A stretch of 64,000 nt of DNA, taken from a plasmid. Within the stretch, counting starts at the first letter, position 1; each line of letters starts with the position of its first letter. Positions 3,139 to 8,982 of this stretch are shown in pieces. Under the pieces are notes generated by a model. The model searched no databases and had not been told where the DNA came from. It saw only the letters and a program-made list of their open reading frames with translations. A program made the translations under genes and the position numbers. The stretch is taken from NCBI RefSeq assembly GCF_054482595.1, contig NZ_JBTHVH010000001.1; one strand, given 5' to 3'.

Positions 3139-3662
3139 CGGTCAATGGGGCCATCGACTGGCTTAACCGCGCTTCTTATTTTTTCACCCTTGATCCATCC
3201 CCAGACAATATGCGGCGCGTTGGTCGTGGCCGCCGTCGCCGTGGTGTTTGTTATTGCATGGCACTACCCGATGTTAAAGAACGTGAAGTCAGAGATGGCG
3301 TTCTGTGCTTCCGTCGTGTGGCTGAACGCGGCATGGAGCCAAAAAATACGAATTCTCCCGAGTGGTGGGCGTGGCGCTGGTCCGCACATTTCGGCCTTTG
3401 CGAAGATGAGAATGAAATTGCCAGCGGCAATAGTGCATATGGTGCTCTGAACCTGGCTTTCCATATCGGATTCAAACATGTAGCTCTGGTGGGCGTTGAC
3501 GCTACGCAAGAACTACGCGTTCACTCCGGCGGCACGCCAAAAAATCTAAGTCACCTGCCTTTGTTATTCCAGTCTGCGCGTGAACAGATTGACGTTGTTT
3601 CATGCGGGAAAATGGGAGGTATTCCGCAGATGACTCTTAAAGAATGGCTGAAGAATACATGA
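3036..3662 (+). CDS. hypothetical protein, paralog 2 (VGSGPS / IIAVN / VGVD motifs)
   Basis: Track ORF; tandem paralog of 2476..3138, about 100 bp frame overlap. Confidence 0.4.
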
Positions 3663-4336
3663 TGGCACCCACAATTTATCACCGTATCGACGGTACCAAA
3701 TACAGGAATGTCTGGGTTGTTGGTGATCTGCATGGTTGCTACACCAGACTGATGTCCGAACTCCATCGTGTGGATTTTGACCCGGCGCAGGATTTACTGA
3801 TATCGGTCGGCGACCTTATCGATCGCGGTACTGAAAATGTCGAATGTCTGGAACTATTGCAGATGCCCTGGTTCAGGGCAGTGATGGGGAACCATGAGCG
3901 GCTGATGATTGATGCGTTAAGTCCAGATGGCAACGTGAATAACTGGCTAATGAATGGCGGACAATGGTTCTTCATGCTGGACACTGATCAGGAAATATTA
4001 GCCTGGGCGCTGGTGGAGCTGGTAAAGCGTCTGCCCTATATCATTGAGTTGAACACGGGGCAAGAAACTATCGTTATAGCCCATGCCGACTATCCGGATA
4101 ATGAATACCAATTCGGTAAGGAGGTGCCGCTTTTCAACGTTGTCTGGGCGCGCGAGCGTATCAGTGATTCGATGGATGATATTGGTGGCGAAATTTCGGG
4201 CGCAGATCGTTTTATCTTTGGTCACACTCCGGTGAAAAGCCCGAAGACATTCTGGAATCAGCAGTATATCGACACTGGTGCCGTATTTTGCGGAAACCTG
4301 ACATTGATGAAAGTGAAAGGTGATGGTGCAGCATGA
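3644..4336 (+). CDS. Ser/Thr protein phosphatase (calcineurin-like metallophosphatase, lambda-PPase type)
   Basis: GDLHG, GDLIDRG, GNHE motifs in canonical order; may correspond to P1 pap (memory, unverified). Confidence 0.75.
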
Positions 4337-5034
4337 AGATTGCTTTAGTTTTTCGCTCTGGTGGTGACTATAACGCTTCCGATGTGCAGTGGCTGGTTAA
4401 TCAACTGCCAAAAGACTATGAAATTATTTGCCTGACAGACCTGAAGTGTTTACATGTACCTGGCGTCAAAGTTATCCCATTGATCAACCAGTGGCAAAAG
4501 TGCCGTGGCTGGTGGGCGAAAATCGAGTTGTTCCGACCGGATATAACCGATGATCTGTTCTATCTGGATTTGGACACGGTTATTGCCGGTGATATACGCC
4601 CAATCCTAGAGCATCCACCAACCAGCTTCACCATGCTTAGGGATTTTTACCATCCACAATATCGTGGCAGCGGTGCCCTGTGGATACCAAATAGTGTTAA
4701 AGCGCATATCTGGAGTTCATTCTGGCAAGATCCGGAAGGTTGGATTTCTCGTTGTGTCACTACTGAGTGCTGGGGTGACCAGGGGTTCTTACGAAAGGTT
4801 ATGGGCGATGATACACCAGCATTTCAGGATCTGTATCCAGGATGGTTTGTAAGTTACAAGGCCGATGTTGTGGAACCTGGTTCAAAATATGCGAGCGCGC
4901 GTTACTCCAGGGGGAATGGGGCATTACCAAAAGACTGCCGAATAATCTTTTTCCACGGCAAACCGCGACCTCGCGAAGTGTCAGAGGATTGGCTTCCCCT
5001 TATCAGCTCATTTTTTGAGCGAGAATCAGAATAA
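4333..5034 (+). CDS. putative nucleotide-sugar glycosyltransferase-like protein (DxD motif YLDLDTV)
   Basis: Track ORF translationally coupled to upstream gene; DLD motif; family not determinable by eye. Confidence 0.4.
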
Positions 5035-5035
5035 T

Positions 5036-5052
5036 ATTGCTCTAATAATTCC
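5036..5052 (+). promoter_or_regulatory. C1 operator-like site (14/17)
   Basis: ATTGCTCTAATAATTCC immediately after stop of 4333..5034. Confidence 0.5.
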
Positions 5053-5061
5053 ATATTTTTA

Positions 5062-5089
5062 AAACGTGATGTACACTCATCACGTTTTT
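5062..5089. terminator. perfect 11-bp stem hairpin (AAAACGTGATG/CATCACGTTTT, loop TACACT) with flanking A/T runs; bidirectional terminator candidate
   Basis: Read directly; sits between two inverted operator-like sites. Confidence 0.5.
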
Positions 5090-5102
5090 TATTAGAGCAA
5101 TC
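5086..5102 (-). promoter_or_regulatory. C1 operator-like site (14/17), inverted relative to 5036..5052
   Basis: Plus strand TTTTTTATTAGAGCAAT. Confidence 0.5.
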
Positions 5103-6598: not shown

Positions 6599-6670
6599 CA
6601 GTTACAGTGTCACTTTTAATGCTGGTGGAGTGCGCCCACCAGCATTTTTTTCGTCCAATGAGGAGGGCAT

Positions 6671-7177
6671 TTGAGTATTTTCAATAAACACGCACACCAG
6701 GAACGTCCGTATATCGTCATAGTTGATATTGATGGAACAATATCAGAGGCAACTGAAGACAGACTGCATTTGCTTCCGCCACCAGGTAAAGGTGCATTAA
6801 CAAAGGACTGGAACGAGTTTAATCTCGCCTGTGACACCGATACTCCCATCACTCCAGTTATTGATATGGTGCGCCAGTTATTTAACGTTTACACGGTCTG
6901 GTTTGTAACCGGGCGCTGTGAGATCGCAAGGGATAAAACACGAGCCTGGCTGCGGAAGTACGTAACAAACGGGGCTGAGCCTTTGCTATCTATGCGTCCT
7001 GCCACCGATGACAGAAATGACGGCCCAGCAAAGATTGATCTCCTTAAGAAAATTGGTCTAAGTAAAATCGCGTTCGCGCTGGAAGATAAGATTGAAGTGG
7101 CGCGTGTTTTCAGGAGGCACGGCGTGCTTACGTTAATGGTCAGGGAGTATGAAAATGCGCTTCTTCATCAACAATGA
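6671..7177 (+). CDS. HAD-superfamily phosphatase-like protein (motif IVDIDGT)
   Basis: TTG start; DxDGT motif near N-terminus. Confidence 0.45.
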   Translation: MSIFNKHAHQERPYIVIVDIDGTISEATEDRLHLLPPPGKGALTKDWNEFNLACDTDTPITPVIDMVRQLFNVYTVWFVTGRCEIARDKTRAWLRKYVTNGAEPLLSMRPATDDRNDGPAKIDLLKKIGLSKIAFALEDKIEVARVFRRHGVLTLMVREYENALLHQQ

Positions 7178-7193
7178 TTGCTCTAATAAATCT
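7177..7193 (+). promoter_or_regulatory. C1 operator (16/17, ATTGCTCTAATAAATCT)
   Basis: Read directly; overlaps stop of 6671..7177, upstream of 7372 gene. Confidence 0.6.
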
Positions 7194-7371
7194 TGATTTT
7201 TAAAACGGAGAAAGTGAAAATAAAAACATGCCGCAAGGCGCGGCATGTATCCAATCAATCACAGGAGCTGAAAATATGAACACGGCATTCAAAATCATTA
7301 TGGCCGCGATCTATTTCTGGCTGTTCTCTATCACTTTTGGCGGCATCGTCGCACATGGGTAAGGGGGATGC

Positions 7372-8100
7372 ATGAAAGGCGAAGTGAAAGAGCGCGGCAT
7401 GATTTTCAACGATGAGATGGTCCGGGCCATCCTCGAAGGAAGGAAAACGCAGACGCGGCGGATAATGAAAAATCAGCCTGCGGAAGTTGGTCCAGAAGCA
7501 CCAGTGATGGTTAGAAAAATTGGTGCAGGTTTTCAGTGGTACGGGGCTGATGGTGTAAGCAGTGTTTTCAATTGCCCATTTGGTATCGTCGGCGATCGAA
7601 TTTGGGTTCGTGAAACATGGGCGATATTAGGCAATGAGGATGGTTGCAGTGTGGACTGGAACGACAACCTTTGTCGTGGCGATGAGAAGAACGCAGCAAG
7701 GATTTATCGGGCCAGTTGCGAGCAAAAACCTGGTGATTACGGCTTATGGTCGATACCCGATGATGCCGACTGGAAACCTCACACTGTGAATGAAAAGTTT
7801 GATGGTGGGTGGCGTCCATCAATTCACATGCCGCGATGGGCATCACGCATTCTGTTGGAAATTACCAACGTGCGCGTTGAACGGTTGAACGATATCAGCG
7901 AATGCGATGCAAGGGCTGAGGGCGTTCCGCCTGCTGGAAGTTTGCTTCCTGATCACCCGGGAACATTCCTTACTCCCAAGGGGGATTTCGCAATGGCCAA
8001 GGTTGCGTTCCAGCGCCTGTGGGAATCCATCTATGGTGAAGAAAGCTGGAACGCTAATCCCTGGGTGTGGGTAATCGAGTTTAAGCGCATTCAGGAATAA
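7372..8100 (+). CDS. ASCH/PUA-like domain protein
   Basis: N-terminal MIFNDEMVRAILEGRKTQTRR pattern common in ASCH-type phage proteins. Confidence 0.45.
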   Translation: MKGEVKERGMIFNDEMVRAILEGRKTQTRRIMKNQPAEVGPEAPVMVRKIGAGFQWYGADGVSSVFNCPFGIVGDRIWVRETWAILGNEDGCSVDWNDNLCRGDEKNAARIYRASCEQKPGDYGLWSIPDDADWKPHTVNEKFDGGWRPSIHMPRWASRILLEITNVRVERLNDISECDARAEGVPPAGSLLPDHPGTFLTPKGDFAMAKVAFQRLWESIYGEESWNANPWVWVIEFKRIQE

Positions 8101-8103
8101 ACC

Positions 8104-8982
8104 GTGAGTATGCATCAAGTCGTCAGCTTTTCAGGTGGACGAACATCGGCTTATCTCGTTCATCTGATGGAAGCACAGCGAAAAGCTGGCGCTAGCGTCC
8201 ATTTCATTTTTATGGATACCGGCTGTGAACATCCTCTGACGTATCGCTTTATTCGTGAGGTTGTGAAGTTCTGGAACGTACCGCTAACGGTGTTGCAGGT
8301 CGATATAAATCCAGAACTTGGGCAGCCAAATGGTTATACGGAATGGGAACCAAAGGATATTCAGACGCGAATGCCGGTGCTTAAACCGTTTATGGACATG
8401 GTTAAAAAGTACGGTACGCCATACATCGGCGGCGCGTTCTGTACCGACAGGCTAAAACTCACCCCTTTCACGAAATATTGCGATGACCATTTTGGGCGAG
8501 GGAATTACATCACATGGCTCGGTATTCGTGCGGACGAACCCCGTAGGCTGAAACCGAAACCGGGCGTCCGGTATCTTGCCGAACTGTCAGATTTTGATAA
8601 GTCGGATGTTATCCGGTGGTGGCGAAAACAACCTTTTGATTTGCAAATCCCGGAGCACCTCGGGAACTGTGTTTTTTGCATCAAAAAGTCAACGCAAAAG
8701 CTGGGGCTTGCATGTAAAGACGAACCAGGTCTGATGCGGGTTTTTAATGAACTGGTTACAGGCAAACACGTCAGGGATGGTCATCGCAGAACAGGTAAAG
8801 ACGTTATGTACCGTGGCCACCTGACGCTTGACGGGATTGCCAGAATGTATGCCGACAGTGACTACAGAAATTTGTATCAGGCGATGGTGCTGGCCAAGCG
8901 GTTTGATACTGGTTCGTGTTCCGAATCATGTGAAATCTGGGGTGACCAATTGGAGTTGAAATTCGAAGAGGTAGTGGAATGA
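8104..8982 (+). CDS. PAPS reductase family (PP-loop ATP pyrophosphatase) protein
   Basis: SFSGGRTSAYL PP-loop motif near N-terminus; 292 aa. Confidence 0.7.
   Translation: MSMHQVVSFSGGRTSAYLVHLMEAQRKAGASVHFIFMDTGCEHPLTYRFIREVVKFWNVPLTVLQVDINPELGQPNGYTEWEPKDIQTRMPVLKPFMDMVKKYGTPYIGGAFCTDRLKLTPFTKYCDDHFGRGNYITWLGIRADEPRRLKPKPGVRYLAELSDFDKSDVIRWWRKQPFDLQIPEHLGNCVFCIKKSTQKLGLACKDEPGLMRVFNELVTGKHVRDGHRRTGKDVMYRGHLTLDGIARMYADSDYRNLYQAMVLAKRFDTGSCSESCEIWGDQLELKFEEVVE

Follow-up and report, generated by a model that had tools for sequence, protein, structure and literature searches.

The interval 3644-8982 of the window (by which we mean the whole 64,000-nucleotide stretch of plasmid contig NZ_JBTHVH010000001.1 that was analyzed) is probably a mosaic of separately acquired enzyme genes and not one DNA-modification pathway. 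Five of its genes encode enzymes: the Ser/Thr phosphatase Ppp, the DxD glycosyltransferase PmgQ, the HAD phosphatase Pap, the ASCH-like protein PmgT, and a PP-loop protein of the PAPS-reductase family orthologous to NinC of phage lambda. An initial annotation, made from the letters alone, had assigned these five families, and all five assignments hold by Pfam, profile and structure comparisons and by lambda orthologues. It had also read the genes as one cluster of early enzymes devoted to nucleotide or nucleic-acid modification rather than morphogenesis, and here our reading departs from it. We favor a mosaic because the boundaries of transcription units, the synteny in divergent P1-like elements and the lambdoid origin of cargo all point that way; "probably" refers to this explanation taken as a whole. 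The data show the gene identities, the families, the mosaic structure, the regulatory sites and the linkage of PmgO/P to PmgQ, while all substrates and biological roles are inferred.

In a megablast search of 3644-8982 against phage records, the first ~4.4 kb (3644-8066) showed 98-99% nucleotide identity to phage P1 (NC_005856, 80760-85182) and to relatives of P1. The whole interval, including its last gene, is present at at least 99% identity in more than 160 Escherichia coli plasmid records. Because of this P1 match and these plasmid records, we identify the window as a P1-like (Punavirus) plasmid-prophage of E. coli. The interval is the already annotated ppp-pmgQ-pmgR-pmgS-pap-pmgT region of P1, with a lambda NinC-type gene exchanged in at its end. 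Gene names were transferred from the P1 annotation (Lobocka 2004; NC_005856, 80.7-85.4 kb) onto the list of open reading frames (ORFs). The genes at 3644-8982 are near-identical to annotated P1 genes and have many homologues, and are real rather than chance ORFs. Gene order, the C1 operators (Op82, Op86a/b, Op88) and the late promoter LPpmgL are those of P1; the difference is that P1 pmgU and pmgV are exchanged in the window for a lambdoid module starting with ninC. Much of this was known already: the P1 genes carry family labels in RefSeq, the lambda NinC orthologue lies in a known variable region, and as a "cluster" the interval is ordinary.

Transcription units, synteny and the origin of the accessory genes

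A scan of the whole window gave 12 matches to the C1 operator, with 0.29 expected, and four of them fall within this stretch (Table 1). The regulatory DNA at the operators and at LPpmgL is identical to that of P1 (100% over window 1330-1500, the LPpmgL region). We take the inverted operators Op86a and Op86b, together with the hairpin they enclose (5036-5101), to be a boundary between transcription units. Indeed, the C1 operators and terminator-like hairpins appear to cut the stretch into several such units. Calling these genes "early" is in keeping with the four operators, but the operon also begins at the annotated late promoter LPpmgL.

The five genes do not travel as a unit. We compared four divergent P1-like elements (L054, L055, L056 and L059; PmgQ 51-57% identical; 90-100 kb contigs). 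In all four, PmgM-PmgO-PmgP-PmgQ-PmgR(-PmgS) are contiguous, and none of the four encodes Ppp, Pap, PmgT or NinC; pmgP there adjoins pmgQ without ppp. The expectation that the genes would be syntenic as one cluster across P1-like genomes is therefore contradicted by these elements. In the window itself all five genes lie on the + strand, as first described, but they are not consecutive, with pmgR and pmgS intervening between pmgQ and pap. Likewise, the VRR-NUC nuclease gene described as just upstream is real but lies 1.3 kb away, with pmgN, pmgO and pmgP in between. Its product, PmgM, matched the VRR-NUC structure PDB 4qbl (E 3.5e-17) with GYPD...RIE(L/I)K aligned, and a PHROG Holliday-junction resolvase (4.8e-27); the Pfam VRR_NUC score was just under the cut-off (21.3 versus 23.8 bits). 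By these profile matches PmgM is a VRR-NUC nuclease with a PD-(D/E)xK core.

The 3' end of the interval is lambdoid. The switch from P1-like to lambdoid sequence falls at the pmgT/ninC gene boundary, and 3.7 kb of the window (8113-11834) shows 92-94% identity to the early-left region of Stx/Shigella lambdoid phages, where a PAPS-reductase gene, small ORFs, and Ead/Ea22 and DUF551 genes lie between the recombination genes and xis/int. In lambdoid prophages of Klebsiella and Escherichia, relatives of PmgT stand alone as single genes, within either the early-left or the nin region. The segment from pmgT to humD is a hypervariable region of P1-like plasmids (PMC9603915).

These comparisons suggest a division into backbone and cargo. 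The backbone would be pmgL-pmgM-pmgN-pmgO-pmgP-pmgQ-pmgR-pmgS, kept in all P1-like elements examined and presumably expressed from LPpmgL plus C1-repressed sigma-70 promoters. It would contain a VRR-NUC nuclease, a putative three-gene glycosylation module (PmgO, PmgP and PmgQ) and the head-completion gene pmgR. The genes ppp, pap, pmgT and ninC would have been independently inserted or exchanged in the E. coli/Salmonella P1 lineage, as cargo of the type carried in lambdoid nin and early-left regions. C1 operators lie upstream of each of these accessory genes, and each accessory enzyme probably works alone on its own substrate. Such a division would explain the variability of P1-like plasmids at this position.

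The nin region of lambda (NinB-NinI) offers a parallel. Two of its products have true orthologues here (NinC, 80% amino-acid identity; NinI, 65%), its junction nuclease NinG/Rap has a counterpart in the VRR-NUC protein PmgM, and in both regions the genes are non-essential, early-expressed and exchangeable (PMC10695390). The two regions differ in control, which is by N/Q antitermination in lambda and by C1 operators plus an Lpa late promoter in P1, and in layout, the P1 block being interleaved with backbone genes that include an essential head-completion gene.

Published genetics bears on the roles of these genes. Although named "pmg" for putative morphogenetic, the label is a placeholder only. 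Knockouts of 24 P1 pmg/upf genes had no plaque defect and unchanged antirestriction against EcoK, EcoA and EcoB (PMC9024508). CRISPR interference directed at ppp, pmgQ, pmgS, pap and pmgT in P1, and at ninC and ninI in lambda, scored all of these genes as non-essential (PMC10695390). The idea that the genes serve something other than morphogenesis thus fits most of them, which are dispensable for infectious virions (PMC9024508; PMC10695390). However, it is wrong for at least one gene inside the span, because pmgR is essential in P1 for head completion and its deletion leaves heads and tails unjoined (PMC9024508).

Could the five enzymes and the VRR-NUC nuclease nevertheless work together in a single pathway of phage or host nucleotide or DNA modification, such as a sugar-phosphate hypermodification? 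The PP-loop enzyme would then activate a substrate, the glycosyltransferase would add a sugar and the phosphatases would trim. We consider this very improbable. What speaks for it is that three of the five (Pap, PmgT and NinC) come from families whose characterized members have nucleic acids or nucleotides as substrates, and to that extent the proposed link to nucleic-acid modification survives; NinC, moreover, resembles SspD (1.8e-13) and DndC. A phage PAPS reductase can help to evade Dnd, according to a second-hand statement in a preprint (10.64898/2026.07.27.740549). One unrelated PmgQ-containing locus (alignment A4), a single case, also encodes, close by, a protein of the Mom family and a pair made up of PAPS-reductase/DUF3440 and ParB-N. 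However, the genes form no conserved unit: they do not co-occur in the 38 PmgQ loci described below, in the PmgT contexts or in the divergent P1-like elements, and in the window operators and terminators set them apart in different transcription units. P1 itself lacks ninC, Ppp appears to be a protein phosphatase, and the enzymes most closely related to PmgQ transfer sugars to proteins or glycans. To our knowledge, P1 encodes no base hydroxymethylase to supply a sugar acceptor, and P1 DNA is not known to be hypermodified. The unaltered antirestriction of the P1 pmg knockouts (PMC9024508) also argues against a single pathway and leaves a mosaic as the reading that we prefer.

The PmgO/PmgP-PmgQ pair and its possible target

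PmgQ has no Pfam match (Glyco_transf_8 included) and no NCBIfam match at E <= 0.01. A profile built from 27 homologues matched, in PDB, the Skp1 alpha-galactosyltransferase 6mw5 (E 5e-7), GlyE (0.007) and glycogenin (0.03). The AlphaFold model of PmgQ (predicted local distance difference test score [pLDDT] 94) gave 6mw5, glycogenin, LgtC and GlyE as its top Foldseek matches, with E of 1e-7 to 1e-8. A DxD motif (D79-L-D81) and an H208-G-x-P-R-P motif with His208 are invariant in the 27 sequences. We regard PmgQ as a predicted GT-A retaining glycosyltransferase, and, because the family libraries gave no match and PDB gave one by profile only, as a member of a distinct GT8-like family. The family numbers 5,384 representatives at E <= 1e-3. 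PmgO belongs to PHROG 4603 (4e-74); the PHROG label for PmgO and PmgP is "alpha-2,3-sialyltransferase", and both have conserved GPS and GNSG...G(Y/F)D motifs.

For genomic context we sampled 38 non-P1 loci among 561 IMG/VR relatives, with PmgQ homologues 34-43% identical. When ten window proteins were used as queries against these loci, only PmgO, PmgP and PmgQ matched; homologues of Ppp, Pap, PmgT, NinC, PmgM, PmgR and PmgS were found around the distant PmgQ genes in none of the 38. A PmgO/P-like gene adjoins the PmgQ-like gene, or lies within a few genes of it, in 26 of the 38 loci by phmmer and in 33 by profile. At three loci the two domains are fused in a single ORF, in both orders, and such fusions occur in 10 of the 150 top family representatives. 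Structural genes flank the pair: major capsid proteins (21), prohead proteases and portals occur within six genes upstream of the PmgQ-like genes, and downstream there are head-completion, connector, HK97-gp10-like, tail-completion and tail-tube proteins. In about 20 or more unrelated phages the pair stands between capsid and connector genes. PmgQ-like genes also co-occur with methyltransferases, of the FkbM type and others, and with 2OG (2-oxoglutarate) oxygenases.

Because of this linkage and co-occurrence, the fusions and the placement in structural operons, the sequence data suggest that PmgO/PmgP and PmgQ are a widespread pair that glycosylates a virion protein. In P1 the operon holding pmgO, pmgP and pmgQ is headed by the late promoter LPpmgL. 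At a late stage of infection, the three putative soluble cytoplasmic enzymes would glycosylate at least one virion protein, with PmgO/PmgP using a CMP-activated ulosonic acid (in E. coli possibly CMP-Kdo) and PmgQ using a UDP-hexose. The modification would be dispensable for plaque formation, akin to that by the capsid-adjacent glycosyltransferases of mycobacteriophages. In E. coli, Maf (DUF115) enzymes are able to attach Kdo or Neu5Ac to Ser/Thr through an O-linkage (bioRxiv 10.1101/2020.06.03.131540).

The virion glycosylation clusters of mycobacteriophages (Che8; the cluster O Corndog-like phages; Freeman et al. 2023, as cited in PMC11256854 and PMC11600133) have glycosyltransferase genes in tandem, in many cases accompanied by an O-methyltransferase. 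These clusters are phage-borne, lie with or beside structural genes and are dispensable for growth, and the relatives of PmgO and PmgQ are arranged alike. The mycobacteriophage enzymes appear to be of other families than the DUF115/MptE-like and GT8-like proteins seen here. The hosts also differ, those of P1-type phages being Gram-negative.

Several points weigh against virion glycosylation. We know of no glycan reported on P1 virions or demonstrated for any relative. The module is not capsid-adjacent in P1. Some lone PmgQ homologues lie by integrase or tail-fibre genes, a lysogenic-conversion-like arrangement, as in Escherichia phage Chlobot (next to int); in Citrobacter phage phiNP the pair occupies a classical moron site, with the lysis cassette on one side and terminase on the other. 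As for PmgO and PmgP, the Pfam match of PmgO to MptE-like has an E of 5.7e-5, the two proteins score 23.4 and 20.9 bits, under the cut-off of 34.6, and their profile gave weak PDB matches, to Cst-II (0.09), the flagellin glycosyltransferase Maf 5mu5 (0.15) and MptE (0.28). Moreover, GT8 enzymes also build the core of lipopolysaccharide (LPS), the P1 receptor, so a target in LPS is possible.

The last point leads to an alternative, namely that PmgO/PmgP/PmgQ modifies a host envelope glycan, either the LPS core or another surface polysaccharide, and thereby stops progeny from adsorbing to debris or excludes superinfecting phages. GT8 includes LPS and lipooligosaccharide core transferases, and LgtC is among the top structural matches of PmgQ. 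Enzymes of the DUF115 type use CMP-ulosonic acids such as CMP-Kdo, itself an LPS precursor; the enzymes are non-essential for plaques (PMC10695390); and the lone homologues by integrase and tail-fibre genes, like the pair at the lysis-terminase moron site, would suit such a role. We nevertheless think an envelope target unlikely. The P1 genes are C1-repressed and late-activated, and therefore pmgO, pmgP and pmgQ should be silent in lysogens and expressed only a short time ahead of lysis. The position of the pair between capsid and connector genes in unrelated phages also argues against it, as do the co-occurring methyltransferases, which mirror the proven mycobacteriophage virion-glycosylation clusters (PMC11600133).

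Returning to virion glycosylation, we put forward a broader claim tentatively, as one that may well prove wrong: that PmgO/P and PmgQ form a previously unrecognized, very widespread (~5,400 representatives at 50% identity) and often-fused system that O-glycosylates capsid or tail proteins in Gram-negative phages including P1, possibly with Kdo-type sugars, and, separately, that PmgT is a phage eraser of N4-acetylcytidine (ac4C) in tRNA. If this is true, virion glycosylation would reach well beyond mycobacteriophages. The linkage predicts a glycan on P1 virions, which would matter for phage immunogenicity and phage therapy. Two leads stand above baseline, chiefly the PmgO/P-PmgQ module and less so the YqfB-like center of PmgT.

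Some PmgO-like ORFs in the sampled loci, 126-136 amino acids long, look like truncated proteins. We rejected truncation: the short length is an artefact of how start codons were called, as the conserved N-terminal half is present in frame upstream. In locus L062 (7291-7998) the N-terminal half is in frame with the C-terminal half, with no ATG, GTG or TTG from the upstream stop to mid-domain; translation must then begin at a non-canonical start codon or enter the frame by a shift from an overlapping ORF. ORF calls point to the same situation in nine further loci (L013, L063, L069, L072, L073, L078, L079, L081 and L083).

PmgT, NinC and the two phosphatases

The predicted structure of PmgT has an ASCH beta-barrel fold. 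The call rests on this structure and on hhalign of one motif, because sequence searches gave nothing significant: there was no Pfam match, ASCH included, and no NCBIfam match, the best PDB hit of single-sequence phmmer was ASC-1 at E 0.89, and the family profile (alignment A1) gave only spurious matches in PDB. In the hhalign alignment the octapeptide GRKTQTRR places K25/T28/R30 of PmgT on K21/T24/R26 of YqfB; among 27 PmgT homologues T28 and R30 are invariant and K25 nearly so. E183 and Y221 are candidate equivalents of YqfB Glu74 and Tyr89, in an alignment that is not significant by itself. We describe PmgT as an ASCH-fold protein, by its predicted structure, with a YqfB-like K-T-R motif. 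In YqfB these Lys, Thr and Arg residues are essential for ac4C amidohydrolase activity (PMC6972931), and 19 of 19 ASCH proteins tested are reported to deacetylate tRNA ac4C (preprint 10.64898/2026.02.27.708502). By analogy, PmgT would hydrolyse an N4-acyl-cytidine (e.g., tRNA ac4C) with a YqfB-type Lys-Thr-Arg/Glu center. Its relatives number in the thousands.

PmgT shares with YqfB and other ASCH N4-acetylcytidine amidohydrolases the GRKTxTxR motif and a C-terminal strand, "VIEFK". It differs in size, 242 amino acids against 103, the extra part being a hypervariable loop and a conserved insertion of ~80 amino acids. The loop, residues ~35-70, is rich in insertions and deletions and lies between the invariant motifs TRR30 and CPFG, in homologues that are otherwise 62-99% identical (alignment A1); it looks like a specificity or diversification loop. 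Three results count against a YqfB-like activity. PmgT and YqfB found nothing in each other by BLASTP, and pairwise Smith-Waterman alignment with shuffles was not significant. In the PmgT model, pLDDT is below 50 over the most conserved segment, residues 81-157, a strongly conserved insertion that AlphaFold could not model. The hypervariable loop and this insertion make a different substrate quite possible.

The window encodes a PmgT of 242 amino acids with the family-typical C-terminus. The reference P1 protein has 309 and diverges after residue 232 (window ~8066 versus ~10423 in locus L001), and it lacks the C-terminal strand VWVIEFKR that is present in all 27 homologues. From this comparison, the window pmgT looks like the intact form and the reference P1 pmgT like a recombination-derived variant or possibly a damaged copy. 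A functional pair of PmgT and its neighbor NinC is not supported: no PAPS-reductase gene lies beside PmgT homologues in the PmgT contexts examined.

The protein encoded at 8104-8982 is 80% identical to lambda NinC. It scored above the Pfam PAPS_reduct cut-off (E 2.8e-9; 37.7 versus 22.5 bits) and has the PP-loop SFSGGRTS. A PADLOC scan of the window proteins reported similarity of NinC to SspD (1.8e-13), DndC (5e-4) and BrxP, and otherwise only coiled-coil noise for PmgS. Scores against the NCBIfam models were far lower than their cut-offs, 17.8 versus 290 bits for DndC and 21.9 versus 154 bits for CysH. NinC has in common with DndC, SspD and CysH the N-terminal PP-loop nucleotide-binding fold, with the difference that the canonical SGGxxS PP-loop is retained in NinC. 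Two narrower identities were rejected. A PAPS reductase (CysH) in the strict sense is ruled out by that CysH score and by the alignment to CysH/APS-reductase structures, which is confined to residues 6-70; no CysH-type C-terminal catalytic (cysteine) motif is visible in the sequence. Membership in a Dnd/Ssp phosphorothioation system is ruled out by the DndC score and by the absence of partner genes (dndA/D/E, sspB/C) beside ninC, whose neighbors are pmgT, small ORFs, and Ead/Ea22-like and DUF551 genes. NinC is best described as a putative PP-loop adenylating enzyme, which would adenylate a nucleotide or nucleic-acid substrate in the manner of DndC or SspD; against this reading, its similarity to solved CysH-type enzymes extends over the first ~65 residues only. 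In the literature we found no function for NinC or phage PAPS reductases save the second-hand Dnd-evasion statement.

In the P1-like Escherichia phage vB_EcoM-813R1 (locus L002), only the first ~70 nucleotides of ninC are kept and are followed by unrelated sequence (~9455-9530, versus window 8104-8175), which points to a second event, recombination or deletion, within ninC.

Ppp matched Pfam Metallophos with 59.3 bits against a cut-off of 21.5 (E 9e-16), is 65% identical to lambda NinI and contains the metallophosphoesterase motifs GDLHG, GDLIDRG and GNHE; its scores against the NCBIfam PrpA/PrpB equivalogs are under the cut-offs (272 versus 326). On this evidence, Ppp is an orthologue of lambda-PP, a PPP-family Ser/Thr protein phosphatase, and would dephosphorylate proteins. 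Pap matched Pfam HAD_PNKP (E 5e-12; 46.5 versus 27.6 bits) with a DIDGT motif I, and the Pnkp1 phosphatase domain PDB 4xrp (E 2e-4). In its 168 residues no P-loop 5'-kinase domain was found by Pfam, PHROG or inspection of the ORF translation, which holds the phosphatase domain alone. The database label "5'-polynucleotide kinase" is thus an over-annotation. Pap would be a stand-alone HAD domain of the 3'-phosphatase type that strips 3'-phosphates from nucleic-acid ends. Roles of Ppp and Pap in host takeover or counter-defence we infer only.

Such roles could be general, the accessory enzymes all being dedicated counter-defence factors: NinC would counter Dnd/Ssp phosphorothioate systems, Pap the damage done by anticodon nucleases, Ppp abortive infection that works through kinases, and PmgT a defence that relies on RNA modification. 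This would explain the mobility of the accessory genes and their placement in variable regions. The genes do lie in or beside the published variable region (PMC9603915) and are exchanged with lambdoid nin and early-left regions, and their promoters, being under C1 control, imply that they are expressed once repression is lifted. Pap is similar to the phosphatase domain of Pnkp1, an RNA-repair enzyme, and NinC resembles SspD, DndC and BrxP. However, ppp, pap, pmgT and ninC have no known phenotype, the knockouts showed no altered response to type I restriction (PMC9024508), and no match to a known anti-defence family was found in the libraries searched. Moreover, with no kinase domain in Pap and no RNA-ligase gene found in 1-13.8 kb, complete RNA repair is not encoded there. 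We regard dedicated counter-defence as possible but doubtful, and retain the mosaic of enzymes that each act on their own substrate.

Feature coordinates and minor observations

The features discussed above are collected in Table 1.

Table 1. Genes and regulatory features in and around interval 3644-8982 (window coordinates).
Feature	Position	Strand	Remarks
Late promoter LPpmgL	1379-1397	+	Coordinates from P1 record; -22 element common to divergent LP26 there
C1 operator, P1 O26 (formerly Op82)	1412-1428	-	Operator scan and P1 annotation
pmgL	1486-1731	+	P1 annotation transfer
pmgM	1734-2312	+	VRR-NUC (PD-ExK) nuclease (profile matches); first conserved backbone gene
pmgN	end at 2534	+	P1 annotation transfer
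pmgO	2476-3138	+	Putative MptE/Maf/Cst-II-like (DUF115) glycosyltransferase, PmgQ partner
pmgP	3036-3662	+	Paralogue of pmgO
ppp	3644-4336	+	Lambda-PP/NinI-like PPP-family Ser/Thr phosphatase; accessory insert between pmgP and pmgQ
pmgQ	4333-5034	+	Predicted GT8-like GT-A retaining glycosyltransferase
C1 operator Op86a	5036-5052	+	Operator scan and P1 annotation
Hairpin then T-run	5064-5085		Between Op86a and Op86b, just 3' of pmgQ
C1 operator Op86b	5085-5101	-	Operator scan and P1 annotation
pmgR	5116-5334	+	Head-completion gene; P1 annotation and PMC9024508
pmgS	5336-6598	+	420-amino-acid coiled-coil protein, kept in backbone, non-essential (PMC10695390)
Intrinsic-terminator-like hairpin	6618-6646	+	Strong; 11-bp stem then T-run; 3' of pmgS
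pap	6671-7177	+	HAD phosphatase, polynucleotide kinase-phosphatase type, without kinase domain
C1 operator OpmgT (Op88)	7177-7193	+	One mismatch to consensus; Op88 and promoters precede pmgT
pmgT	7372-8100	+	Predicted ASCH-fold protein, 242 amino acids
ninC orthologue	8104-8982	+	PP-loop ATPase, PAPS-reductase superfamily; gene absent from P1; probable true start ATG 8110
Lambdoid module (Stx-phage early-left region)	8113-11834	+	In place of P1 pmgU/pmgV; ninC, small ORFs, Ead/Ea22-like gene, DUF551 gene

Several genes overlap in the first part of the stretch. The paralogues pmgO and pmgP share ~100 nucleotides (3036-3138) in different frames, and ppp overlaps pmgP by 19 nucleotides and pmgQ by 4. 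The ppp overlaps are consistent with translational coupling, although ppp is an insert.

Downstream of ninC, at 8979-13849, small co-oriented ORFs follow; among those that Stx phages have as well are an Ead/Ea22-like gene (9411-10058) and, at 10933-11841, a DUF551 gene. The ORFs at 11906-13849 have no Pfam match, and the G+C fraction is ~0.39 at 12000-13000.

Between pap and pmgT, on the + strand, there is an unannotated ORF of 28 codons (7276-7362), MNTAFKIIMAAIYFWLFSITFGGIVAHG. It is strongly hydrophobic, and has a Shine-Dalgarno-like AGGAG ahead of it; both the Op88 promoters and a palindromic hairpin (7226-7248) are on its 5' side. The ORF is kept in P1 with one nucleotide different.

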